IMG/VR virus record: IMGVR_UViG_3300028600_000001
Span: 1 to 36,761 of that record
Reading direction: 5' to 3' (one strand)
Length of the DNA stretch: 36,761 bases
Source of the DNA: a virus
Below, piece after piece: positions 7,467-36,761 of this stretch. The position numbers and the translations under genes are program-made. The notes under the pieces are model-generated. The model was not told the origin of the DNA and made no database searches. It saw only the letters and a list, made by a program, of their open reading frames with translations. How positions within the stretch are numbered: position 1 is the first letter of the stretch; every line of letters begins with the position of its first letter.

Positions 7467-8165
7467 TTAAGGTCGGAAACCTTTTCCTATATTTACATCT
7501 CCGTAATTTAGGCTGAATGGACCATTTCCAAGAACCTGCATAATGTCTAGGCTAAGATCAGGTGGGCTCACGTCTCTAATCATGCGCTCCATGTGTCGAA
7601 GCTTTCTTTCCTGGGATGGAGTCAAAGAAATCTGGTATTCATCAGCAATATCTTCTGCTAACGCATACTTCAAATACCGAAGATAGAAGCCCTCAAACGC
7701 AGTCAGTTCCTCATCTATGGTGACCGAGGAAAATCCAAACTTACCTTCTATCTCAAATGGATAGGCTAAATTGGGTAGAGGATATAGAAATAGATTTGTT
7801 CCATTTAACGTACGCTGAAAATAAGCTTGAGAGGGGAGAGTCGTAATGTTGTTAGCGCGACCCCATCCTTTGTATTGCTTCCTCTGAATAATATCTATTT
7901 CGTACCGTACCGTCCCGAGTGTAAAAGTTATGGTTGATGGATAGACAAGTAGGGGGATGAAATACTCTTCCTGCCCTACTACAGCAGTAAAGTTGTAAGG
8001 CTGGTAATAAGGTATTTGAGAAATTTCAGCTGTTTTGAAATCAAGGAGCTGGTTCAACAGAATCAGCCCCTGACTTTCTTGCTTTGGACTGAGAGTATCT
8101 AGTTCCTCTGAGTTAACAACAAACTTATATGCAGAATCTATAAGTTGTCTTGTCGTTATAGCCAC
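7467..8165 (-). CDS. Head-to-tail adaptor (gp4-like), 232 aa
   Basis: Position between the head genes and the tail hub. The N-terminal LIDSAYKFV...ESQGLILLNQLLD pattern is typical of podovirus adaptor proteins. Confidence 0.5.
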   Translation of the reverse strand: MAITTRQLIDSAYKFVVNSEELDTLSPKQESQGLILLNQLLDFKTAEISQIPYYQPYNFTAVVGQEEYFIPLLVYPSTITFTLGTVRYEIDIIQRKQYKGWGRANNITTLPSQAYFQRTLNGTNLFLYPLPNLAYPFEIEGKFGFSSVTIDEELTAFEGFYLRYLKYALAEDIADEYQISLTPSQERKLRHMERMIRDVSPPDLSLDIMQVLGNGPFSLNYGDVNIGKGFRP

Positions 8166-8187: not shown

Positions 8188-9000
8188 CTACGTAAGTGAG
8201 TAAGTCGATCCCAAAGTTAAAACAGAAACTAGACCGCCCGCAGTATCTACAAAGGCTCCAACTCCGCGTTGCCCGGCTACGTCCCTTCCAACTGGCATAC
8301 GAATATACTTATTAGCAAACTGCACAGTCGATTCCACCCATATATTAAAATAATAATTTCCGTTCGCCCCGGGATCAGTATTTGATGGGGTGAAAAATGC
8401 TTGTGTATCGACCCCTCCTGCGTTACTCAAGGTAGACATAAAAGAGAATATTTTTGCTGTAGGAGGAACCTGAAGGGGGAATCCACCTATTTGAAATCCA
8501 AAAGAGGTATTAGAAAAATCCAGCTGTCCGTTTTCTAGGTGTCTCTCCCACTGAATAGTTCTAGAATTCAATCCGTCCTCAATCATCGTGAAGCTTTCTA
8601 CTTCCGTACTAACATTGACAAACACCCACCCTACAAATCTGTGAATATCGTAGGATTCGCCAGAAGGAGAATTTATTACAGGAACCGAAGGAATGGAGTC
8701 AGGAGAATCTTCTAGAACTGCAACTACCTTAGGGACTAAAGCGGCTAAAGAAGACTGGAGAACAAAAACGCCATACCAGCTGTTAGGAGCCACAGTGCCA
8801 GCCAATAAACCATTTAAACCATTGGTAGTTAAATCTAAAGTAATTGGAGAATTAACCACCATATCAAAGGTGTTAGTGCTATCTCTTGCCTGTCCCGTTC
8901 CTACAGAAATGGCTGCATTGCCAGCTACTGTGAACAGGCATCCCTGAACATACAAAAATCCTTTGTTTACTACAGGAACAGCTCTTTTTTCTATAGACAT
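8188..9000 (-). CDS. Structural paralogue family A, copy 4 (270 aa), function unknown
   Basis: Shares VVN.G.LY.QGC, G..RDSTNTFDM, WY..FV, YD..RFVGWV and GRD motifs with the three genes upstream. Confidence 0.7.
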   Translation of the reverse strand: MSIEKRAVPVVNKGFLYVQGCLFTVAGNAAISVGTGQARDSTNTFDMVVNSPITLDLTTNGLNGLLAGTVAPNSWYGVFVLQSSLAALVPKVVAVLEDSPDSIPSVPVINSPSGESYDIHRFVGWVFVNVSTEVESFTMIEDGLNSRTIQWERHLENGQLDFSNTSFGFQIGGFPLQVPPTAKIFSFMSTLSNAGGVDTQAFFTPSNTDPGANGNYYFNIWVESTVQFANKYIRMPVGRDVAGQRGVGAFVDTAGGLVSVLTLGSTYSLT

Positions 9001-9012
9001 GAAAATTAACTC

Positions 9013-9840
9013 CTAGATTGAGAATGTGAAACTACTTACCTGAATTTGGAGAGAGTTTCCTCCACCATCCCCGGCTATAATTCTTCCACCGATCCCGGCG
9101 TTACCACTTCCGTCTCTTCCAATCGCCATGGATAAGAAAGTTCTTCCAATACCACCACCCACAGCAACAGGAGAATCAAATTGAAATATATAAGCGCTGG
9201 TGGGTCCCGGATCAGTTACTCGTTGACTGATCGCAGCAGTAAAGGGGGTCACACCAGCAAGATTTAGTAAGACCCCTTGCGCTTCAAATTCTAGGGTAGT
9301 TGGTGGCACGAGACTTCCAAATGATCCAGTCATAAATGCATATGTGGCGCTTGTAAAAGAAACCGCGGTGGCAGTCAAATCATTCCAATATACTTTTCTC
9401 TTCCCAACACCACCAGGAATCATGGTGTACTGTAGGAGTCCGGAAGACCCGCTTCTCACCCAGCCAATAAATCTAAAAATATTATAAGTTTGATCACTTG
9501 AAAGGGGTAAATCTTTAGGAAATGGAATTTCATTAGGAGAAGTTGATGTAACAGCTATAGTGGCTACCTGAAGAGCGTCTAACTTGGAACCCATAATAAA
9601 AATGGCGTACCACGTGTCGTTTGAAAATGTTTCTGTTGGTTGAAGTCCATTAACACCGGAGACACTTAAATCCAAAATAGAGTCTTGTGACAATGCCATA
9701 TCAAACGTATTGGTGCTATCTCGCACTTGTCCGGCCGATACGCTAAGAGTATTTGCGGTAAGAGGCTCTACTAAGCATCCCTGTTCGTAAAGACTACCTT
9801 GGTTAACAACTTGAGTTACAAATTTTTGTTCTACGGCCAT
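9013..9840 (-). CDS. Structural paralogue family A, copy 3 (275 aa)
   Basis: Same motif set: VVNQGSLYEQGC, GQVRDSTNTFDM, WYAIFI, YNIFRFIGWV, PPTTLEFEA, IGRD. Confidence 0.7.
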   Translation of the reverse strand: MAVEQKFVTQVVNQGSLYEQGCLVEPLTANTLSVSAGQVRDSTNTFDMALSQDSILDLSVSGVNGLQPTETFSNDTWYAIFIMGSKLDALQVATIAVTSTSPNEIPFPKDLPLSSDQTYNIFRFIGWVRSGSSGLLQYTMIPGGVGKRKVYWNDLTATAVSFTSATYAFMTGSFGSLVPPTTLEFEAQGVLLNLAGVTPFTAAISQRVTDPGPTSAYIFQFDSPVAVGGGIGRTFLSMAIGRDGSGNAGIGGRIIAGDGGGNSLQIQVSSFTFSI

Positions 9841-9851
9841 TATTATCTCCT

Positions 9852-10664
9852 TTAAATTAAATGGGTGTACGAAAGAATAGAAATGTTCAAAGGGACTGTA
9901 GCGGAATCTACAATACCCCCAATACCCATGGCGTTATTAGCTAGCGCGTTTCTTCCAACCGGCATAGAGAAAAAAGTTTCTCCAAACTCAGTTATCAAAA
10001 CCGAAAAATCAAAATAATAGTCGTTTATTGTTGGTGGTTCTGTAGGAACAAAAGTAACGTGGGCGTCATATTGTGAAGTTGGAGGTATACCAAGCATCGT
10101 GCCAACTGCTTCAAATTCAAGACCTGTTGGTGGAACCCAGTCACTCAAGGTAGCCGTATCAAACTGAAAGCTTGTATTGGCAAAAGTTAGAGCAACCGAA
10201 GTCTGTTCCCAAAATACTTTCCGGCATCCCCCGCCAGTTGGAACCATCTTAAAATTTTCTATCTCCACAGATGCATTTGTGCGCACCCATCCCAAGAACC
10301 TAGATATGTCATAGGATTTACCGGAAGAACCGGAATTTAGGACAGCAATAGAAGGGAGAGAATCCACAGAATCAGACTTTACCGCCATCCCGAGTGGAAG
10401 AGCATTCTGAAGTTTTGAAGATAAAACAAATATTGCATACCATGTATTTGCTTCAGCGGCACCACTCTGTAACCCACCTAACCCAGGTACAGAAAAATCT
10501 ATAGCCAAGGGAAACAAAACCTTTATGTCAAAAAAGTTTTTACTGTCTCTTAACTGACCGCTAGAAATTGATACCGATAACGGTCCCGTTTTTTCCAGCA
10601 AACACCCCTGCGAATAAAGATTTGGAGCATTTACGACTTGTCGTACAAATGGCTCTGTGCCCAT
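9852..10664 (-). CDS. Structural paralogue family A, copy 2 (270 aa)
   Basis: Same motif set: VVNAPNLYSQGC, GQLRDSKNFFDI, WYAIFV, YDISRFLGWV, PPTGLEFEA, VGRN. Confidence 0.7.
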   Translation of the reverse strand: MGTEPFVRQVVNAPNLYSQGCLLEKTGPLSVSISSGQLRDSKNFFDIKVLFPLAIDFSVPGLGGLQSGAAEANTWYAIFVLSSKLQNALPLGMAVKSDSVDSLPSIAVLNSGSSGKSYDISRFLGWVRTNASVEIENFKMVPTGGGCRKVFWEQTSVALTFANTSFQFDTATLSDWVPPTGLEFEAVGTMLGIPPTSQYDAHVTFVPTEPPTINDYYFDFSVLITEFGETFFSMPVGRNALANNAMGIGGIVDSATVPLNISILSYTHLI

Positions 10665-10676
10665 TAGAATTCTCGG

Positions 10677-11453
10677 TTAGATTAAGTAATGACAAGATAA
10701 AACCTTAAGTTCTAAATTGCTTGCAGCAGCACTTACTATCGTACCAAACCCAAGATTTCCTGAGACATCTCGACCTACCAATATTCTGAACTCTATTGGA
10801 TCAGGCAAAGTAGGAAGCGCATTCACACACATAAAGTAGTCAGGTAACGTGGGTGGCTCCGTGCTTAAATAAGTTATATAGCCATTCTCAACTATTGAGG
10901 GATTAAGAACATCCATCTTCAGATTTACTTCAAGAGCGCTTGGAGGAATAGAAGCCCCTAGATTTCCTTGGTTGAAGGCGAAGACTGTGTTGTTTACCGA
11001 AAGGTCTACCGAAGGTAGATCCCAATAAACCGTTCTACTATTACCACCCGTAGGTACCATCCTAAACGGTCTAATTTGTTGAGTACCATCCACGAAGTAC
11101 CAGCCAACAAAACGATTCATGTCATAAGTAATCCCCTTCTCCGAAAACACTTCATAGGGAGGAGGAGTGTTATCCGTGGAAGACATGCCCTCAAAAACTG
11201 CGCTTAGCCTAGGCTGAGCAGCTTGAAGCTTAGAAGAAGCCAAATAGAGAGCATACCAATTATTGGCTGCCAGCTCTGGAGTCGTAAAAGTCACGCTAAG
11301 AGGCTGATTTACTACTATGTCAAAGCTGTTCGTGGAGTCCCGAACTCTCCCAGTAGAAAGTGAGAGAGTTGTGGGTCCCGGAGACGAAAGAACGCAGCCT
11401 TGAGCATATAAACTCGGCGCATTTACGCTCTGCAACGCAAATTCTATTCCCAT
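10677..11453 (-). CDS. Structural paralogue family A, copy 1 (258 aa)
   Basis: Same motif set: VNAPSLYAQGC, GRVRDSTNSFDI, WYALYL, YDMNRFVGWY, VGRD. Its start abuts the coat gene stop. Confidence 0.7.
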   Translation of the reverse strand: MGIEFALQSVNAPSLYAQGCVLSSPGPTTLSLSTGRVRDSTNSFDIVVNQPLSVTFTTPELAANNWYALYLASSKLQAAQPRLSAVFEGMSSTDNTPPPYEVFSEKGITYDMNRFVGWYFVDGTQQIRPFRMVPTGGNSRTVYWDLPSVDLSVNNTVFAFNQGNLGASIPPSALEVNLKMDVLNPSIVENGYITYLSTEPPTLPDYFMCVNALPTLPDPIEFRILVGRDVSGNLGFGTIVSAAASNLELKVLSCHYLI

Positions 11454-24199: not shown

Positions 24200-24210
24200 A
24201 GTGTTCCCTA

Positions 24211-24335
24211 ACTTTAATATATATAATTTATGTTTTTCATGGGACAGTTAATGGAGTTGTACAGGACAGTTAACCTGTGGATAACTTTTATGTAGGGAAG
24301 GAATATGGATCACCCTGTGGGTAAGTTGTGGATAA
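24211..24335. promoter_or_regulatory. Candidate replication origin: AT-rich tract, 2 x GGACAGTTAA, and three co-oriented DnaA boxes
   Basis: 24211-24240 is 27/30 A+T. GGACAGTTAA occurs at 24242 and 24264 (22-bp spacing). TGTGGATAA occurs at 24276-24284 and 24327-24335 (perfect reverse complement of TTATCCACA). TGTGGGTAA occurs at 24316-24324 (1 mismatch). The region is adjacent to the RepA-like gene. Confidence 0.55.
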
Positions 24336-24434
24336 GTAGTTATGGAGGACGAAAGAGGGGTGGAAAGAGGGTTTAGTAGTGGTGTTTTGGGGTAAATGAC
24401 GGATTTTGGGCGTAGAAACCCTATGGAGTGGGGT

Positions 24435-25109
24435 TTAGCACCCTAGGTTGAAGGCTTTAAGGAGTGTTGGGATAGGAATGGAGGGGCACATATGTTGGAT
24501 TCGTTTCAGGAGGTTTATTTTTTCTTGGATCACTGCCTGAGAGACTTTGGAGAAAAAGGGTCTTGTGTCTCTGGGCCTCTTCAATACTTTGCCTAGGGCC
24601 ACAAAGGGGGCTCCTACGACAGCTTTGAGGGCTGCGTTGAGTTTCTGTCTAGCGTAGCTGATGTCATTCGTGAGCGTCTTCTCTGGCACTCCCACGTCTT
24701 TGAAGAACTGGGTGGTGAGTTTTCTTTCTGCGTTCAGGCCCCTTATAGCGTTGCTACGCAATAGTTTGGATCTTTGTCGGGATGTTAGGTAGCCAGCTCT
24801 AGTAAGGACCTCTAGGGCTCTTGCTACGCGCCTTAGGGACATTCCAGATTTAGAGGCTATGAAATCAACAGAGAGATTTATGAAGGAGGTTCGATTTTTT
24901 ACCGCACAGAATCGAAGCGACGACAAATCGAAGTGAGATAATATGACATGCAACACTTTCCAGACCGCTTCTCGTCCTTCTAGACGATGGGTTCTTCTAG
25001 TATCGCGACTCCAGGATATATTAGGAAGAAGATGAGGATTCTTCAGATAAGTCTGAATTTTCTCCCTGGCAATCCGTAGCGTCAATGGAGGTTTTTTTTC
25101 GTATTCCAC
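24435..25109 (-). CDS. Replication initiator, winged-helix RepA-like, 224 aa (GTG start uncertain)
   Basis: SGMSLRRVARALEVLTRAGYLTS...KLTTQFFKDVGVPEKTL resembles the wHTH and following segment of plasmid RepA-type initiators (from memory). Adjacent to the DnaA-box region. Confidence 0.45.
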   Translation of the reverse strand: MEYEKKPPLTLRIAREKIQTYLKNPHLLPNISWSRDTRRTHRLEGREAVWKVLHVILSHFDLSSLRFCAVKNRTSFINLSVDFIASKSGMSLRRVARALEVLTRAGYLTSRQRSKLLRSNAIRGLNAERKLTTQFFKDVGVPEKTLTNDISYARQKLNAALKAVVGAPFVALGKVLKRPRDTRPFFSKVSQAVIQEKINLLKRIQHMCPSIPIPTLLKAFNLGC

Positions 25110-25650
25110 CGGGTCCCTTCTCTTTTTGTGAAAAAGTTGGAATATTCTTGGAATTAAGCTCCCCGTGACTTATTTTTTCTAAATTCTTTAAAGCCCAAAG
25201 AGGCACCCCCTCCTTGTCTCGCCAAGTATAAACAGTTTGCCTAGACACATTCAAGGCCAAGGACAACTTGTATAGACTTCCAAAATAATGAACTGCTGGC
25301 GCAAGTGCGCCGTAAAAGACTTTGCTGTCGCTTCTAAGTTCTTCTGGGAATTGTTCCCATCTGATTGCTGTTATTTGTGCTTCTAGGATGAGCTTGTCGC
25401 GCTTGCTCATGTTGATGATAGAGATTCTGCGACCGAAAGGAATGGGTCCCATTTGAATGTAAATAGCTCCGATTAGCCGATAGAAATGCTCTAAGCTAGG
25501 GACGGCATTTGAAAAATCTAGGGTGACATGCTTATAGATTCGTATCTTTTCTAGTATTTTTTCTTTGGCGCGTTGATAGCCGCTGGTCCCTCGAATTGAA
25601 TTAAGGAACAACCGCATTTCAATTTTTACGCCGAATGTTATGCCTGCCAT
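25021..25650 (-). CDS. HTH DNA-binding protein (Cro/YdaS-like C-terminal HTH), 209 aa
   Basis: SLYKLSLALNVSRQTVYTWRDKEGVP is a classic HTH. AGAGGTGA lies before the ATG. Driven by the consensus promoter at 25671-25699. Confidence 0.6.
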   Translation of the reverse strand: MAGITFGVKIEMRLFLNSIRGTSGYQRAKEKILEKIRIYKHVTLDFSNAVPSLEHFYRLIGAIYIQMGPIPFGRRISIINMSKRDKLILEAQITAIRWEQFPEELRSDSKVFYGALAPAVHYFGSLYKLSLALNVSRQTVYTWRDKEGVPLWALKNLEKISHGELNSKNIPTFSQKEKGPGGIRKKTSIDATDCQGENSDLSEESSSSS

Positions 25651-26328: not shown

Positions 26329-26721
26329 ATGAAAATAGAGTTTCCTTTACCTATCAAGCACAAGAAATCCCCATCTTATTCTAAAAGAGAAGGTCGGTTG
26401 CCGCTGGTAGACACTTCGAAAATGAGTGAAGAAGAAAAATTAGAGCTGGTTAAGTCCCACCCCGCCAACATCCTAAATATAGATAATCCTACTATGGCCT
26501 TAATACAGTTCGCCATTAAGAATCTGGACCCGTCAGGTATTTCCATAAAGTGTAAGAGTGATGAGAGGGGCGTACTAGCAGTCGTCCATTTAAACGAAAA
26601 AAATTCTGAGGAAGTAAAGCTAGCATCGGTGAAACAGGATGGAGATTCGATTAGATACATCAAAAACCCCTCCCCAGCTGTGAAGGCAGCAGCCCGCATA
26701 TCAATGGAGAAGCACAAATGA
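26329..26721 (+). CDS. DUF4116-like repeat protein (130 aa counted from MKIEFPL)
   Basis: AAGGAGA lies 7 nt before the ATG at 26329; the tracked ATG at 26296 would sit at the predicted transcription start. Segments NPTMALIQFAIKN and NSEEVKLASVKQDGDSIRYIKNPSPAVKAAA match the repeats of the next genes. Confidence 0.65.
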   Translation: MKIEFPLPIKHKKSPSYSKREGRLPLVDTSKMSEEEKLELVKSHPANILNIDNPTMALIQFAIKNLDPSGISIKCKSDERGVLAVVHLNEKNSEEVKLASVKQDGDSIRYIKNPSPAVKAAARISMEKHK

Positions 26722-27305
26722 ATCCAACAACTTTCAAAGAAACATTAGAAAAAGCAGAGGGGGGGGACCGAGAAGCGCAATACCAATTGAGTGTTATGTA
26801 TATGAACGGAGAGGGAGTGAAGCAAAACGATGAAAAAGATTTTTATTGGTGCCAGAGGGCCGCAGAAAGCGGACACCCCAACGCCCAATACAACTTAAGC
26901 CTTATGTATATGCAAGGGATTGGAGTTGAGAAAGATCTGGAGAAACAGTTTTATTGGTCTGAGAAGGGCGCGACAAACGGCCACGAAGAAGCCCAATACA
27001 ACTTAAGCGTTATGTATAGGGACGGAATTGGAGTCGAGAAAGATAAAGAGAAAGAGTTTTATTGGCGCCAGAAGGCCGCCGAAGGGGGGTACCCATGCGC
27101 CCAACACAACCTAAGTGTTATGTATCTGGTGGAAAAAGATTTTGAAAATGCCTTTTATTGGGCCGAGAAGGCTGCAAAGGGGGGGAACCACCACGCCCAA
27201 AAAAACTTAAGTCGTATGTATACGAACGGCGACGGCGTTGAAAAAGATGATGAAAAATCTCTTTATTGGTTCAATAAATCTTGGTTTGAAAAGGAGAACT
27301 CATGA
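26718..27305 (+). CDS. Sel1-repeat (SLR/TPR-like) protein, 195 aa, about five repeats
   Basis: Repeated AQY.LS.MY..G.GV.KD..K.FYW..KAA..G units with ~36-aa period. ATGA coupling at both ends. Confidence 0.85.
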   Translation: MNPTTFKETLEKAEGGDREAQYQLSVMYMNGEGVKQNDEKDFYWCQRAAESGHPNAQYNLSLMYMQGIGVEKDLEKQFYWSEKGATNGHEEAQYNLSVMYRDGIGVEKDKEKEFYWRQKAAEGGYPCAQHNLSVMYLVEKDFENAFYWAEKAAKGGNHHAQKNLSRMYTNGDGVEKDDEKSLYWFNKSWFEKENS

Positions 27306-27916
27306 ACAAGACCGAAGTCTCAGCGATGAGCGAGGAGGAGCAGATCGCCCTAGTCAGAACAAATCCTATAGACCTAGAAAGCTACATTGTATACATAAAT
27401 AATCCTTCTGAATCTGTACAAATGGCCTCGGTTAGAAGCGACCCTCTCTCGATACGATACCTCCATAACCCTTCCGAATCCGTTCAAATGGAAGTTGTTA
27501 GAAAGGAAGGATGGGGGCTCGAATGCATCCAAAATCCTTCAGAGGAAGTGAAGCTAGAAGCAGTTAAACAGAATTCATGGGCGATTAAATGCATCCACCA
27601 CCCCTCGGAGGAAATGAAACTCTCAGCTGTCAAACAGAATGGATTTGTGATTTCCTCCATCCAAAACCCCTCGGAGGAAATGAAACTAGCAGCGGTTAAA
27701 CAGAATGGATTGTCGATCCAATGGGTCTTAGACCCTTCCGAAGAAGTTCAAATGGCGGCAGTAAATGAGGACGGACGGGCTATACGATATATCCATCACC
27801 CAAGCGTAGTAGTACAGCTAGCCGCGGTTCACCAGTATGAAACAGCCATCCTATATATCTCTAACCCATGCGAATTAGTTCAAAAAGAACATAAGATATG
27901 CCACCCGGATCACTAA
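27302..27916 (+). CDS. DUF4116-like 23-aa tandem-repeat protein, 204 aa (7-8 repeats)
   Basis: Repeated NPSEEVKLEAVKQNGWAI.YI. units. AAGGAGA lies before the ATG. Confidence 0.75.
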   Translation: MNKTEVSAMSEEEQIALVRTNPIDLESYIVYINNPSESVQMASVRSDPLSIRYLHNPSESVQMEVVRKEGWGLECIQNPSEEVKLEAVKQNSWAIKCIHHPSEEMKLSAVKQNGFVISSIQNPSEEMKLAAVKQNGLSIQWVLDPSEEVQMAAVNEDGRAIRYIHHPSVVVQLAAVHQYETAILYISNPCELVQKEHKICHPDH

Positions 27917-27918
27917 AA

Positions 27919-28392
27919 ATGAACAAGACCGAAGTCTCAGCGATGAGCGAGGAGGATCAGTTAAGGCTAATTAAAGAGAATGGATGGGCGATTGAATACA
28001 TTGAAAACCCTTCAGAGGAAGTGAAGCTGGAAGCGGTTAAAGAGTATGGATGGGAGATTCAACACATCCAAAACCCTTCCGAGGAAGTGAAGCTGGAAGC
28101 GGTTAAAAGTATGGGATGGTCGATTGCATACATCAAAAACCCTTCAGAGGAGATGAAGCTAGCAGCTGTTAACCAGAATGGATGGGCGATTGCATGCATC
28201 AAAAACCCCTCTGAAGCCGTTCAGTTGGCTGCAGTACAACAGGACGGCCATTCCATCGAATGCATCCACAATCCCTCGGAAGCCATTCAGCTAGCAGCAG
28301 TCCAAGAGAACAGCTATTCCATAGACTGGATATCCAACCCCTCTGAAGCCGTGAAGGCAGCCGCCGCATCCAAGCGGGCAAGAGATCCTTAA
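27919..28392 (+). CDS. DUF4116-like 23-aa tandem-repeat protein, 157 aa (about 5 repeats plus a partial one)
   Basis: The first 38 nt (ATGAACAAGACCGAAGTCTCAGCGATGAGCGAGGAGGA) are identical to the start of 27302..27916, favouring the ATG at 27919 over the tracked 27898. Confidence 0.7.
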   Translation: MNKTEVSAMSEEDQLRLIKENGWAIEYIENPSEEVKLEAVKEYGWEIQHIQNPSEEVKLEAVKSMGWSIAYIKNPSEEMKLAAVNQNGWAIACIKNPSEAVQLAAVQQDGHSIECIHNPSEAIQLAAVQENSYSIDWISNPSEAVKAAAASKRARDP

Positions 28393-28409: not shown

Positions 28410-28438
28410 TTGACAACTCTTAATAAGTAAAGTAAAGT
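28410..28438 (+). promoter_or_regulatory. Promoter of the recombination module, carrying the GTAAAGTAAAG motif
   Basis: TTGACA (28410-28415), 17-nt spacer, TAAAGT (28433-28438), within AATAAGTAAAGTAAAGTACTCC. Confidence 0.6.
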
Positions 28439-28467: not shown

Positions 28468-29319
28468 ATGTTAACTCAATCAGAACTAGCAGCTCGTAAG
28501 GAAGGAATAGGAGGATCAGACGTAAGTGCACTGCTCGGGCTTAGCCCTTGGAAGAGCGCATTGGATGTCTATCAGGAGAAAACCCAAGAACTTCCCCCTC
28601 AAGAAATTACCCAATGGCAAGAGCTTGGGCACTTGATGGAGAATCAAATTCTAATTCCTTACTACCAACAAAAATACAATAAAGTCATAGAATTTCCTTC
28701 AACTATCAAGCACAAGAAATACCCCTTCATGCTCGCTCACGTGGATGGATTAGACGTAGAGAACAACCGCATTATCGAGTGTAAGAATGTAGGGGGGTAC
28801 AAAAACACAGATAAGTGGGGAGACGCTGGCACTGACCAAGTTCCTTACACGTACCTACTACAATGCATTCATTACATGGAAGTTCTAGAGGTTGAGGAAA
28901 CGTATTTGGTAGCACTCTTCGGCGGAAACTGCATTGAAGTCTTTATCATTAAGAGGAACGAAGAGCTAATAAACAAAGTAATTGAGAAAGAAAAACACTT
29001 CTGGGAGAACCACGTTGTTCCTGAGATTCCTCCGGAGCCTTCCACTCTCACAGACATAAAAAGTTTATATCCTTACTCTACAGAATCAAAAATAGCAGTA
29101 GCAAACACGCAGGTCTTAACGGATATCATCGAGTACCGCGAGTTGGAGCAGCGAAAATGTGGAGTTGAAAAAGAGATGGCTGTTAAAAAGGTAAGCGTTC
29201 AGAAATTCATGAAGGACGCAGAGATTTTAGTCTCACAAAACGAAGAGCAAATAGCTACCTTCAAGCAGACTAAAAAAGGATCTAGAACTTTTAGACTCAA
29301 AAAGAATTTTTTCCAATAA
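28468..29319 (+). CDS. YqaJ-type (lambda-exonuclease-fold) recombination exonuclease, 283 aa
   Basis: N-terminal GIGGSDVSALLGLSPWKSALDVYQEK is the hallmark YqaJ motif. PD-(D/E)XK elements HVDG...IIECK. Paired with RecT. Confidence 0.85.
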   Translation: MLTQSELAARKEGIGGSDVSALLGLSPWKSALDVYQEKTQELPPQEITQWQELGHLMENQILIPYYQQKYNKVIEFPSTIKHKKYPFMLAHVDGLDVENNRIIECKNVGGYKNTDKWGDAGTDQVPYTYLLQCIHYMEVLEVEETYLVALFGGNCIEVFIIKRNEELINKVIEKEKHFWENHVVPEIPPEPSTLTDIKSLYPYSTESKIAVANTQVLTDIIEYRELEQRKCGVEKEMAVKKVSVQKFMKDAEILVSQNEEQIATFKQTKKGSRTFRLKKNFFQ

Positions 29320-29329
29320 CCCTAACCCT

Positions 29330-29674
29330 ATGGAGATAGAAATGAGAAAACCAAACAACAAAACCCTAACTAACGAAGAAACGCTGAGAGAGGTCATGAA
29401 CTTTTGTCACGATATGCAGATGTCCAAAGATTCAATTTTAGATTTACAAAAAAATATGCTGGGAACTTACAAGATTTGTTTTGAGGCAGCAAAAGATGGG
29501 GTTCTCAAGGAGCCCAAAAAAGTTTTAGAAAACCTATTAAAGATGCTCGAGTACTCAAATGGAATTATTTCTTGTGGAAATAGAATCGGCATCCTAAATA
29601 AAGACGTATTCGATCAAATTATGGAAAAGTTTAAAAAGCAGTACGAAGAAAAAGGGGGGAAAAAAGATGCCTAA
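29330..29674 (+). CDS. Hypothetical protein between the exonuclease and RecT genes, 114 aa (or 110 aa from the ATG at 29342)
   Basis: ORF in the operon. GGAGA lies before the second ATG. Confidence 0.55.
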   Translation: MEIEMRKPNNKTLTNEETLREVMNFCHDMQMSKDSILDLQKNMLGTYKICFEAAKDGVLKEPKKVLENLLKMLEYSNGIISCGNRIGILNKDVFDQIMEKFKKQYEEKGGKKDA

Positions 29675-30539
29675 AACCGAGCTGAGCACTTCAAAGAACC
29701 AGCTATCCGTTATAGTGGAGAAGCAAACAGCCTCCTTAAGGAAGGCCCTGCCGAGTCACATCAAGGGACCCTCTTTCGTGCGGTCTCTTCAAACGCAGCT
29801 AAGGCTTATTCCTAAGCTTCAAGAATGCACTCCTTTGTCATTCCTCTCGTGCGCTTACCAGATAGCTCAACTAGGGCTTACGCCTTCACCTTTGCTCGGG
29901 GAATGCTATTTGATCCCCAGGCGTAAAAACGAAAAGAGAGGAACCGAGTGGATTGAGCGCTACCTATGTTCTCTAGTGATTGGCTATAAGGGCCTTATCT
30001 CCTTAGCAACAAGAGGGGGGAACGTACTGGACATCAGCACAGACGCCGTCTACGAAAAGGATGACTTTACGCTTGAAAAAGGAACCCATCCCAAGTGCAT
30101 AAACATCCCATTTGACGGAGAAGATCGTGGTGAATTTAGAGGAGCCTACGCGGTTGCTACTATGAAGAACGGCTTTAAAAAATTCGAGTACATGAGCAGG
30201 CATGAGATCAACAAAATCAGAGATAAGTCGGACGGATATCTAGCAGCCATAAAACCTCAAGGTGAAAAATCTACTTGGAAGAAGCCCAGCAGCCCTTGGA
30301 TAACAGACTACGACGAGATGGCAAAGAAGACCGTAATCAGGAGGCTCTGCAAGACGATTCCTTTCGCTTTAGAGCTCCAGCAAGCCATTTCTTTAGATGA
30401 GATTGGGGATCGCAGCCTATCCATGCAGGGGGAGCATATGCAGGCCTCCATTCCTGAAGGAGAGATACTGGACGCTCAAAGCTTTGACTCTTCTGAGCCA
30501 AGCTCAGCATCTGAGAATCTAAACAAGATTTTGGAGTAA
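29667..30539 (+). CDS. recT: RecT-family single-strand annealing protein, 290 aa
   Basis: ALPSHI...SFLSCAYQIAQLGLTPSPLLGECYLIP...VIGYKGLISLATRGG...FRGAYAVATMKNG aligns closely with E. coli RecT as remembered. Confidence 0.9.
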   Translation: MPKTELSTSKNQLSVIVEKQTASLRKALPSHIKGPSFVRSLQTQLRLIPKLQECTPLSFLSCAYQIAQLGLTPSPLLGECYLIPRRKNEKRGTEWIERYLCSLVIGYKGLISLATRGGNVLDISTDAVYEKDDFTLEKGTHPKCINIPFDGEDRGEFRGAYAVATMKNGFKKFEYMSRHEINKIRDKSDGYLAAIKPQGEKSTWKKPSSPWITDYDEMAKKTVIRRLCKTIPFALELQQAISLDEIGDRSLSMQGEHMQASIPEGEILDAQSFDSSEPSSASENLNKILE

Positions 30540-30551
30540 AGGAGAAATAAA

Positions 30552-30854
30552 ATGCGAAAACTAAGTAAGGACTTGTGGAGCAGATCATGCGATCACTCTT
30601 ATAAAGAATGCTCGGAATGCGCTTATCTAAGAGAGAATAACGTTTATTTAAAAGAGGAGGGTGGAGAAACAAAAGAGATCGGAAATTTAATTGTAAGTAG
30701 AAAGGTAGGAGAAAAAATATACATCGGAGACGATATTTTAGTTCAGATTTATCATATTGGTTCGGCTCCAAATTCAAAAAATAATAACGTAACTGTAGGA
30801 ATTTCAGCCCCTAAGGACATGTCTATACTTAGGGATAACATTAAAAAACTATAA
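30552..30854 (+). CDS. csrA: CsrA/RsmA-family RNA-binding protein with a ~44-aa Cys/His-containing N-terminal extension, 100 aa
   Basis: LIVSRKVGEKIYIGDDILVQIYHIG...NVTVGISAPKDMSILRDNI aligns with E. coli CsrA [59 protein letters not shown] lies before the ATG. Confidence 0.75.
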   Translation: MRKLSKDLWSRSCDHSYKECSECAYLRENNVYLKEEGGETKEIGNLIVSRKVGEKIYIGDDILVQIYHIGSAPNSKNNNVTVGISAPKDMSILRDNIKKL

Positions 30855-30867
30855 ACCGGAGGTAATT

Positions 30868-31491
30868 ATGGGCGAAACAGGGACGCTTATATTAATTGGT
30901 GTAGGAGTAGTAGTAATAATCGTAGCAGCTGTAGTGGCTATAAAATGTTTTAAAAAAAATGCGTTCGAAGAAAAGGTAGAGTTAGAGTTTCAGGTGAAGA
31001 CTGGTCATCTTGTGATGGTAAAGAGAAATAACCTAAAAGATCCTTTTTCATCTATATGCAGCTCTTGCTTTAGGCCTTCTGTTGACATTAAGGTTTTTAA
31101 TTCGGACGCAGAGTATGCGCAATCTGAATGGAAAAATTCTCCCACCCCCATATCTGATGAAGAGGCTAGCACAGGCAATAAGATAGCGGGATATCTCTTT
31201 AAAGCGAGTAAGGCGCTTAGTGATACAGCCTATAAATTAAAGAGAAAATACTCAGATCATAGGGCGAACAGAGGCTTAGAAAGAGAGAGGGAAGATGGGG
31301 GTGTAGAAATATTGGAAGTCAAAGATTCCTCTTCTCTCCTTAGACCTTCAAAGCAGAGTACTCAATGGAAAATAGCGCAAGAAAGAGAGGTTCTTAGAAT
31401 CAACATAGACATCTCTAAAAATATTAAAGATGTCGTGGAAGAAGGTCCTGAGCAGGCTCAAGAAGCTGGGGACATGTACATGAAATTGTAA
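30868..31491 (+). CDS. Single-pass membrane protein, 207 aa, function unknown
   Basis: N-terminal TM LILIGVGVVVIIVAAVVAI followed by a charged soluble region. GGAGG lies before the ATG. Confidence 0.6.
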   Translation: MGETGTLILIGVGVVVIIVAAVVAIKCFKKNAFEEKVELEFQVKTGHLVMVKRNNLKDPFSSICSSCFRPSVDIKVFNSDAEYAQSEWKNSPTPISDEEASTGNKIAGYLFKASKALSDTAYKLKRKYSDHRANRGLEREREDGGVEILEVKDSSSLLRPSKQSTQWKIAQEREVLRINIDISKNIKDVVEEGPEQAQEAGDMYMKL

Positions 31492-35388: not shown

Positions 35389-36761
35389 TCAATAGCGAAC
35401 TTGATAGTATACACCAAAATTGGTCGGTCTCGTAGATATGCCTCCAGCGTCATCTCCCATAAAAGTATTAGCAAGGGCAGTGCTTACTAAATCTAATACG
35501 GGGATGGCCCCTCCTCCTGATCCAGCAGAAATGGGATGATTATGAGAAGCAAAATCCTGAATCTGAGAATAATGAGCCAATAGGTTGGTAGGGTAAGGAG
35601 ATTCGCTGAAGATAGTATCTTGCGGCGAAAAAATATCGCCCATTCCTCGCAGAGCCATTCCCCTCAAATCGGGTACGGCAACAAATACTGAATTGAGAGC
35701 GGCTTGTGTTTTTAAGGTTACCGCGCTTGCCGAGTCTCCACTCAAAACATCAACTTGAATTCCAGTTCTAGCGGCTAGGAGAGGATCAACTCCTGCGCCA
35801 TCAACCGTATACCAGAAATAGTAATCCCCATTACCTACGGTTGAAAACGTGACATTAGCACCAGGCGGGATAGCCCCTCCACCGACTGGGGCAATATTCA
35901 TTTGAGAATGGCCCCTAGCAGCTGCATAGCTGGCCATTGCAACATCTTGGGTAGTCCAAGTAGATCGAAGGTTAACTTGAATTGGGGTGCCAGCTAGCCC
36001 AGGGTCTACGCCCGCTCCATCCACTGTGTACCAAAGATACGTTTGATTACCCACGATCCCTTCATTATTAAAACCCAAGGAAGCGCCAGCCGGGGGGATG
36101 CCCGTTACACTAATGCTACCTACCGTACGCCCTAAATCAGTTTTTAGAAAAATAGATAGGTTAGAGCCTACAGAAGTATTAAAGTCAAGAGAGTCTCCGG
36201 GGAAAAACACGTTTGAAATGAAAACTAATGTGGGGCCAGAAATCTCGTTTGTATTCCCAAGATAGCAGTCAAATCTATGTCCCGTAGGAGTTCCGGGAGT
36301 AACTGGGAAAAAGGTAAAGCCAGTAGCAGGCACACCATCAGCAGGAACTGCTGGGATTCCTACCTGATTATTAGATAAGAAAAAATACGTAGGGGCCACC
36401 GAAGAAATAGCCGCATCTACAAAAAATGGACCACTCCCAAATTGACACACCCCTTGGGCTACTGAGAAATATTTATCATATAAACGAGAGTAAGGAATCC
36501 CCAGAGGGCTCACTCCGTTAACCGGATAACTTGATCCGTCCGCCAAAAGTAAATTGGTAGTGGTGCTTATTGAAGGGGGGACCGCGTTCCCTAAAGTGGC
36601 TTCTATGTTCCCTATTGAAGAAGCATCGGCCGAAAATCCTTCCGGAGTAAACACCACGGGCAAATAAAGATCATCGGTCGTATAAACTTTATTAGTTAGG
36701 CTTCTCGTTACGAAATCTCTGTCTGTGGTGACCGGAAATTCTGAGATTGCTAGATTTCCTT
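35389..36761 (-). CDS. Tail fibre, 3' part; C-terminal phage tail-collar-like domain
   Basis: The tracked M at 36663 is an internal TTG (Leu). The frame stays open to the window end and continues at 1106..1. C-terminal VPDLRGMALRGMG...SHNHP...TRPTNFGVYYQVRY matches the remembered tail-collar domain pattern (lPDlRGr...G.g...H.H...rP....v.y.I). Confidence 0.75.
   Translation of the reverse strand, partial: GNLAISEFPVTTDRDFVTRSLTNKVYTTDDLYLPVVFTPEGFSADASSIGNIEATLGNAVPPSISTTTNLLLADGSSYPVNGVSPLGIPYSRLYDKYFSVAQGVCQFGSGPFFVDAAISSVAPTYFFLSNNQVGIPAVPADGVPATGFTFFPVTPGTPTGHRFDCYLGNTNEISGPTLVFISNVFFPGDSLDFNTSVGSNLSIFLKTDLGRTVGSISVTGIPPAGASLGFNNEGIVGNQTYLWYTVDGAGVDPGLAGTPIQVNLRSTWTTQDVAMASYAAARGHSQMNIAPVGGGAIPPGANVTFSTVGNGDYYFWYTVDGAGVDPLLAARTGIQVDVLSGDSASAVTLKTQAALNSVFVAVPDLRGMALRGMGDIFSPQDTIFSESPYPTNLLAHYSQIQDFASHNHPISAGSGGGAIPVLDLVSTALANTFMGDDAGGISTRPTNFGVYYQVRY
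36635..36761. repeat. Terminal direct repeat, copy 2
   Basis: Identical to 1-127. Confidence 0.95.

Follow-up and report, generated by a model that had tools for sequence, protein, structure and literature searches.

A CsrA-family protein with a Cys/His-bearing N-terminal extension encoded by a phage genome from metagenomes

The phage genome in IMG/VR record IMGVR_UViG_3300028600_000001 (positions 1 to 36,761; this whole stretch of 36,761 nucleotides [nt] is referred to here as the window) carries on its plus strand, directly downstream of a recT gene, an open reading frame (ORF) that encodes an N-terminally extended member of the CsrA family. The best overall explanation of the data, which we hold with moderate confidence, is that the product is a functional CsrA/RsmA-family RNA-binding regulator that retains its leader and is expressed together with YqaJ and RecT as a protein of 100 amino acids (aa). 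An earlier annotation made from the sequence alone (the original prediction) had placed this ORF at 30552 to 30854, exactly as found here, and had described a CsrA homolog with a possible zinc knuckle in an N-terminal extension and an enlarged loop. The coordinates of the gene, its parts, and its neighbors are collected in Table 1.

The CsrA core

The hidden Markov model search for the CsrA family that had been proposed as a check matched residues 46 to 98 to Pfam CsrA (PF02599) with 48.3 bits (gathering cutoff, 27; E = 9.7e-13) over profile positions 2 to 48 of 53. The PHROG 9500 family, “CsrA-like regulator,” was also matched (4e-10), and sequence matches in the PDB were solely to CsrA/RsmA/RsmE chains, the best being RsmE 2jpp (5e-6). 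In the AlphaFold2 (AF2) monomer model, residues 41 to 100 have predicted local distance difference test (pLDDT) values of 83 to 96, and the model contains the five beta strands that make up the CsrA core. Foldseek comparison of the model with the PDB gave seven top matches that are all CsrA/RsmA/RsmE (probability, 1.00; target-normalized template modeling score, 0.58 to 0.76; root mean square deviation, 1.7 to 2.9 Å; 52 to 54 columns), and the viral structure library gave no significant match. The homology put forward in the original prediction is thus borne out by the Pfam score, the PDB sequence matches, and the agreement of AF2 with Foldseek. We are highly confident that the protein is a CsrA-family RNA binder.

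The two segments that had been said to carry the RNA-binding residues align as described: LIVSRKVGE pairs with LILTRKVGE of RsmE, and ISAPKD..ILR pairs with INAPKD..VHR. In the alignments to solved CsrA/RsmE chains, in which GISAPKDMSILRDNI pairs with GINAPKDVAVHREEI, R94 falls on R44, which in Escherichia coli CsrA is an essential RNA-binding residue (PMC7366521), and L46, V48, R50, and K51 align to L2, L4, R6, and R7, with L4 replaced by V and R7 replaced by K. The protein shares with E. coli CsrA (1Y00) and Pseudomonas fluorescens RsmE (2JPP) the same beta1-to-beta5 core (positions 2 to 47), including LIxxRKVGE, GIxAPKD...R, and the arginine at position 44. In an alignment of 76 sequences, which comprises the best single-domain relatives and also served as the AF2 input, P87 and R94 do not vary, and conservation reaches at least 90% for L46, R50, G59, and A86; the phage protein keeps all six. 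The claim that the protein aligns along the whole CsrA fold holds for positions 2 to about 50, but most of the C-terminal helix and the tail are absent.

All of the NCBIfam CsrA equivalog models score well under their cutoffs, and for this reason the protein is a divergent CsrA-family member and not an ortholog of the housekeeping regulator. The best identity to any protein among 1.84 billion representatives is 59%, and it extends over the core only. The tail past the invariant Arg, a feature that had been overlooked, is the shortest of the 76 at 6 aa (median of the others, 20; minimum, 7), and no C-terminal helix is assigned by DSSP in the AF2 model. Since the PDB includes CsrA chains of only 49 residues (5z38_E) and 55 residues (7yr6_E), a short helix stub may be sufficient.

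The insertion between the beta strands, given in the original prediction as about 8 residues (SAPNSKNN), is in fact 6 residues long (SAPNSK, S71 to K76) and lies in the beta3-beta4 loop. The distance from G59 to A86 has a mode of 20 in the 76 homologs, is longer than that in 30 of them, and is 26 in four, including this protein. The enlarged loop had been regarded as noncanonical; by this comparison it is long, yet it lies at the top of the natural range of the family.

Base composition separates the core from the leader. Among the 44 ORFs listed as genes of this phage, the set used for all comparisons of Cys and GC content, csrA has the lowest GC content (GC, 0.34, and GC at third codon positions, 0.30, versus means of 0.425 and 0.40). 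The GC content of the core (0.304) ranks at the 0.66th percentile of windows of equal size, whereas that of the leader (0.394) is ordinary for the genome. This difference between an extreme core and an ordinary leader suggests a mosaic or acquired origin for csrA, with the caveat that both segments are short. The fusion would probably have joined a captured, AT-rich CsrA core without a start codon of its own, in frame, to resident phage sequence, and the leader may, with less certainty, be a lineage-specific addition.

A decaying or nonfunctional CsrA remnant would also be in keeping with the lost canonical start, the scores below the NCBIfam equivalog cutoffs, the C-terminal tail that is the shortest in the 76-sequence comparison set, and the outlying base composition. 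However, the ORF is uninterrupted and has a strong Shine-Dalgarno (SD) sequence and a place in a compact operon; every invariant and near-invariant residue of the family is kept; the fold is predicted with confidence; solved structures include the short CsrA chains 5z38_E (49 residues) and 7yr6_E (55 residues); and identical copies of the gene were recovered in four samples that represent at least three studies or archives. We consider decay to be very unlikely.

Table 1. Features of the csrA-like gene and its surroundings in the window
Feature	Position	Strand	Basis or remark
CsrA-like ORF	30552..30854	+	CsrA-family product with N-terminal extension; 100 codons and a stop codon
N-terminal extension, residues 1 to 44, orphan sequence	30552..30683	+	Homology searches, AF2, GC
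Cys/His cluster C13-x-H15-x4-C20-x2-C23, candidate single-metal site or redox-active Cys cluster	30588..30620	+	Residue positions, composition statistic
SD sequence AAGGAG, 7-nt spacer to ATG	30539..30544	+	Sequence, start-codon survey; holds one of two AAGGA motifs
Internal GGAG (30663 to 30666), 11 nt, then ATC codon 43	30663..30680	+	Start-codon survey; sole conceivable route to a short CsrA
CsrA core, residues 46 to 98, beta1 to beta5 plus helix stub	30687..30845	+	Pfam, AF2, Foldseek, GC
Six-residue insertion in beta3-beta4 loop, S71 to K76	30762..30779	+	phmmer alignments to RsmE and CsrA
R94 codon, counterpart of E. coli CsrA R44	30831..30833	+	Invariant alignment column; aligned to R44
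Shortened C terminus, 6 residues (DNIKKL) after invariant Arg	30834..30851	+	Comparison with 76 sequences
Compact gene string, YqaJ exonuclease gene to 207-aa protein gene	28468..31491	+	ORF list, Pfam
YqaJ exonuclease gene	28468..29319	+	Pfam YqaJ
114-aa ORF	29330..29674	+	ORF list
RecT gene	29667..30539	+	Pfam RecT
207-aa protein gene, hydrophobic segment at N terminus	30868..31491	+	ORF list
Candidate sigma-70-like promoter TTGACA-17-TAAAGT, upstream of YqaJ-RecT-CsrA string	28410..28438	+	Consensus scan, 10/12 matches; pattern match only

The N-terminal leader

The original prediction held that the extension is probably translated, and the start-codon survey agrees. The SD sequence of the full-length ORF, which had been called strong, is AAGGAG, separated from the ATG by 7 nt. 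Upstream of the core, canonical start codons are found in frame only at codon 1 (ATG) and codon 8 (TTG), both of which precede C13, and the TTG has no usable SD spacing. The canonical Met1 position is occupied by Asn45 (AAT), confirming that no ATG, GTG, or TTG is available there, and none of the three occurs in frame from codon 9 to codon 89. The 44 leader codons contain no stops in frame and three stops in each of the other frames; shuffled versions stay open in 2.4% of cases (P about 0.024). Furthermore, a start at the core would imply a gap of 144 nt, compared with intergenic gaps of −19 to 75 nt in the wider plus-strand operon. Because codons 1 and 8 are the sole canonical starts, the 44-aa leader must be in the product, given canonical initiation, and its translation is very likely. 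In solved CsrA chains, the CsrA part begins at chain position 10, 14, or 21 and is thus preceded by approximately 9 to 20 residues, so that the fold can accommodate additions at the N terminus.

The same region holds one conceivable start for a shorter protein. A near-canonical CsrA of about 58 aa could be initiated at ATC codon 43, with the upstream 42 codons acting as a leader ORF or in translational coupling; the sequence GAGGAGGGTGGAG is present at 30654 to 30666, and the ATC at 30678 is at an acceptable SD spacing from the GGAG 11 nt upstream. However, ATC is a very weak initiator codon, the stretch from codon 9 to codon 89 offers none of the usual ones, and the upstream ATG has a perfect SD sequence from which ribosomes would traverse the internal site. 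Such a product is highly improbable, and the full-length protein with its leader remains the preferred reading.

The ligands named in the original prediction (C-D-H-x5-C-x2-C) are all present in the leader, but their spacing is C13-D-H15-x4-C20-x2-C23, with x4 in place of x5. Cys makes up 0.92% of the phage proteome, and this is the only protein of the 44 with three Cys residues within 11 residues. For a random 44-aa segment with the composition of the proteome, the probability of three Cys and one His in 11 residues is about 1.7e-4, and it is about 0.04 when the whole proteome is taken into account. The cluster is thus more than chance composition. Retroviral-type CCHC zinc knuckles (C-x2-C-x4-H-x4-C) are RNA-binding mini-domains, and the leader shares with them three Cys residues and one His in a short span and an RNA-binding context; however, order and spacing differ (C-x-H-x4-C-x2-C, 11 residues), and the likeness is one of resemblance only. 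On the residue pattern, a metal or redox module is a tentative assignment for the leader, possible rather than probable.

Several points weigh against a functional regulator that makes use of its leader, and the case as a whole is weakened by its dependence on a single genotype with no host assigned and by the lack of comparative or structural support for the leader. The leader has AF2 pLDDT values of 53 to 58, and its one predicted helix, of four residues (21 to 24) at the CxxC, has low confidence. Searching residues 1 to 45 against Pfam, zinc-finger models included, gave no family even at E ≤ 10, and a PDB search of the leader gave chance-level matches only (E = 6.8). A word-indexed search of 5.8 billion proteins for leader homologs returned only the protein itself; in an exhaustive phmmer search of the 1.84 billion representatives, no match reached residues 1 to 23; and searches of IMG/VR and, separately, of JGI metagenomes found canonical-start CsrAs only and no leader homolog. 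The ligand spacing fits no curated zinc-finger model and is not that of the CCHC knuckle. All four carriers of the gene are 99.98 to 100% identical, too close for analysis of nonsynonymous-to-synonymous substitution ratios or of single nucleotide polymorphisms, and there is no sign of purifying selection on the Cys and His residues. Beyond the leader, the cutoffs of the housekeeping CsrA equivalogs were missed (TIGR00202, 44.7 versus 70.1 bits; NF002469, 43.2 versus 73 bits) and most of the C-terminal helix is absent; on both grounds, activity could differ from that of a housekeeping CsrA. Rfam at E ≤ 1 identified no Csr/Rsm decoy RNA in the phage, and any host Csr network to be hijacked is hypothetical. 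As for the zinc knuckle, what is left of that proposal after the Pfam and PDB searches, the low pLDDT, and the failure to find homologs is a residue pattern.

Many of these observations would be accommodated by an ordinary CsrA with an inert leader, in which a core that was captured without a start, or whose ATG became AAT, is read from the nearest upstream ATG and carries a disordered tail with functionless Cys and His residues. The leader is a singleton orphan of low predicted order, its base composition differs from that of the core as would be expected for a recent fusion, N-terminal tags do not block CsrA folding, and other CsrAs bear short, unrelated, Cys-free leaders. Nevertheless, three Cys residues and one His in 11 residues are improbable at the values given above, both per segment and proteome-wide, and are unique in this phage, and the perfect SD sequence and operon-typical spacing look like those of a purpose-built start rather than of accidental read-in. 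An inert leader is therefore somewhat unlikely, and we continue to favor a regulator in which the leader has a role.

Two kinds of candidate leader relatives were rejected. Proteins of 100 to 310 aa that matched in two stretches, and that might have been N-extended CsrAs, are tandem CsrA-CsrA fusions. A metagenomic locus (L022) that matched residues 19 to 97, with “CLWC” upstream, begins canonically with Met-Leu-Ile, and an AAGGAG lies 7 nt before this start. No similarity to the leader was found within the phage's own genome or in any of the fetched loci.

The tandem proteins form a group in their own right. Many of the best core matches (P0002 to P0017 and others) are single polypeptides with two to four tandem CsrA domains; P0005, for example, has 122 aa and a poly-Gly linker, and P0004, P0010, and P0011 have four copies each. 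From their sequences, such polypeptides would be covalently fused CsrA “dimers,” of which we know of no description.

Proposed function and relation to other CsrA proteins

CsrA proteins are domain-swapped dimers that bind GGA motifs in 5′ leaders and alter translation (PMC7366521). By analogy with the family, the core described here would form the usual domain-swapped homodimer and would bind GGA-containing sites in 5′ leaders, often over SD sequences, and this binding would alter the translation or stability of host mRNAs, phage mRNAs, or both during infection. Since the leader is joined directly to beta1, which forms one edge of the CsrA RNA-binding site (PMC7366521), it would be expected, if structured, to modulate RNA binding or partner choice; independent action is unlikely. 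The compact C-x-H-x4-C-x2-C cluster might hold one metal ion or form a redox-sensitive disulfide.

A more specific proposal, in which the Cys/His leader on beta1 is a metal or redox switch and zinc or thiol status gates RNA binding or heterodimerization with host CsrA, is distinctly unlikely. To our knowledge, the CsrA antagonists that have been described are all external, namely, decoy small RNAs (sRNAs), FliW, and CesT. If the switch were real, it would be a case of self-contained CsrA control, independent of decoy sRNAs (CsrB/RsmZ) or of protein antagonists (FliW and CesT). A Cys-rich module on the strand at the RNA edge would be a natural experiment in reengineered CsrA specificity or control, and it could show how a phage customizes a host-type global regulator.

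The geometry of the leader also bears on an anti-CsrA role, in which the protein would form heterodimers with host CsrA via the domain-swapped interface and the bulky N-terminal module would block or retarget one or both RNA sites in a dominant-negative hijack. The strands of the dimer interface are conserved and the leader sits on beta1 at the RNA-binding edge, an argument from geometry only (PMC7366521). However, no cellular CsrA is more than 59% identical to the protein, and the phage has no assigned host. We regard this role as scarcely probable; the favored reading is still that of an RNA-binding regulator in its own right.

Two AAGGA motifs lie 28 nt apart in the initiation region of the gene itself, and this pairing hints at autoregulation. 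The local RNA fold of this region, considered as a candidate hairpin for such control, was not significant (z = −0.62).

CsrA proteins are almost always minimal, at about 60 to 75 aa. Compared with housekeeping CsrA/RsmA/RsmE proteins of about 61 to 70 aa, the phage protein is longer at 100 aa and differs in its 44-aa Cys/His leader, Asn in place of Met1, a loop longer by 6 aa, and a tail of only 6 residues. Phage-borne CsrAs, including the RsmM type of F116-like Pseudomonas phages, gp28 of Escherichia phage PTXU04, and those of Pondi, Bas95, and Providencia PSTCR8lys, match from residue 40 or 46 to residue 95 or 97 with 38 to 44% identity. Overall, 44 phage records match the protein, and not one (0/44) matches residues 1 to 39.

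Delivery of a CsrA by a phage, which the original prediction had raised as a way to reprogram the host, is therefore not new. A 2020 catalog listed 30 of 2,517 phage genomes as csrA positive (PMC7366521), and the csrA homolog PTXU04 gp28 was classed as “Semi-fit,” with smaller plaques on knockdown (PMC11879866). The variation described for CsrAs of mobile elements consists of extra C-terminal helices (PMC7366521); the protein described here is the opposite, with its N terminus extended and its C terminus shortened. On other carriers, the csrA-like genes of Legionella genomic islands are mobile-element regulators (PMC7366521), and RsmQ, the CsrA homolog of plasmid pQBR103, is reported to reprogram its Pseudomonas host (PMC9928087). 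The idea of a mobile-element regulator that can seize control of host translation is the same as that for the phage protein, with another type of carrier. In the literature searched, no N-terminal Cys/His module is reported for CsrAs of plasmids or integrative and conjugative elements, and there is no report of an N-extended, Cys/His-bearing, C-terminally shortened CsrA.

The closest parallels to the leader are in a subgroup of metagenomic CsrAs (P0023, P0049, P0060, P0081, P0084, P0085, and P0104) that also have Asn at the junction, usually as G-N-L, and true leaders of 6 to 26 aa. At least one of them, P0104 (L010, 5001 to 5186), belongs to a phage replication module, where it sits between small ORFs and genes for an Rv2179c-like exonuclease, a deoxynucleoside monophosphate kinase, and DNA polymerase A. 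Unlike the leader described here, with which they share no sequence similarity, those of the subgroup lack a His/Cys cluster and never contain more than one Cys. Phage CsrAs with leaders are thus not unique. Among the sequences compared, however, no other genuine leader (one whose canonical start position lacks a Met) is as long, and no other is rich in Cys.

Genome setting

The window is a phage genome, with PHROG matches to a portal, large terminase, major head protein, scaffold, head closure protein, and ejection protein. Its first 127 nt and last 127 nt (1 to 127 and 36635 to 36761) are an exact terminal repeat, and it is therefore a circular assembly of 36,634 bp; in independent contigs, the gene order wraps from the window end to the window start. 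Phage carriage of the csrA-like gene, as originally proposed, is established by the structural and packaging genes on this circle. The identical 100-aa protein is carried by four independent contigs, and the same genome, at the identity given above, is present in four samples (SRR12605076, SRR12605113, ERR11809035, and JGI 3300028599) that span at least three different studies or archives. The habitat was recovered for one of these: ERR11809035 is a benthic coastal-sediment metagenome from the North Sea (PRJEB64856; PMC12175321).

The portal is only 21 to 24% identical to portals of P22-like Proteobacteria phages, and the nearest relative of RecT elsewhere is 41% identical; on these values, the lineage appears to be isolated. 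A search via RecT for close phage relatives with a syntenic csrA found none, 41% being the nearest. The host was not recovered: the portal scan of GTDB genomes was without a match, no taxon is given in the names of the nearest CsrA clusters, and the window has no tRNA genes with which to look further. Rfam gave no match at E ≤ 1 anywhere in the window. None of the ORFs scanned has an integrase domain; Cro-like and helix-turn-helix (HTH) regulators are present (24435 to 25650).

Within the gene string, the csrA-like ATG follows the RecT stop by 12 nt, and the next gene follows csrA by 13 nt. The first genes of the early operon that ends in this string (26718 to 28392, plus strand) encode a 195-aa protein with Sel1 repeats (Pfam E = 1e-41), followed by two proteins of 204 and 164 aa with DUF4116 repeats. 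Repeat families of the Sel1/DUF4116 type are commoner in host-interaction proteins, and relatives of the proteins encoded here are present in the jumbo phages Atu_ph07 and SCTP-2.

The intergenic region at 24200 to 24434, which adjoins an HTH_36 gene (24435 to 25109, minus strand), has the densest GGA content in the genome (11 per 150 nt versus a mean of 2.6) and was considered as a CsrB-like sponge. It was rejected as such because its DnaA boxes and AT-rich tract fit a replication origin better. Three DnaA-box-like 9-mers, TGTGGATAA, are found there, of which those at 24276 to 24284 and 24327 to 24335 are perfect and that at 24316 to 24324 matches at 8/9 positions, along with two copies of the 10-nt direct repeat GGACAGTTAA and an AT-rich tract at 24209 to 24235. 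From these motifs, the region is probably the phage replication origin.

The gene for the major head protein is followed immediately by a cluster of related genes. Beside an unrelated gene of 232 aa (7467 to 8165), four consecutive genes of 258 to 275 aa (8188 to 11453, minus strand) are mutual paralogs, with identities of 32 to 39% and E values of 1e-35 to 1e-58.

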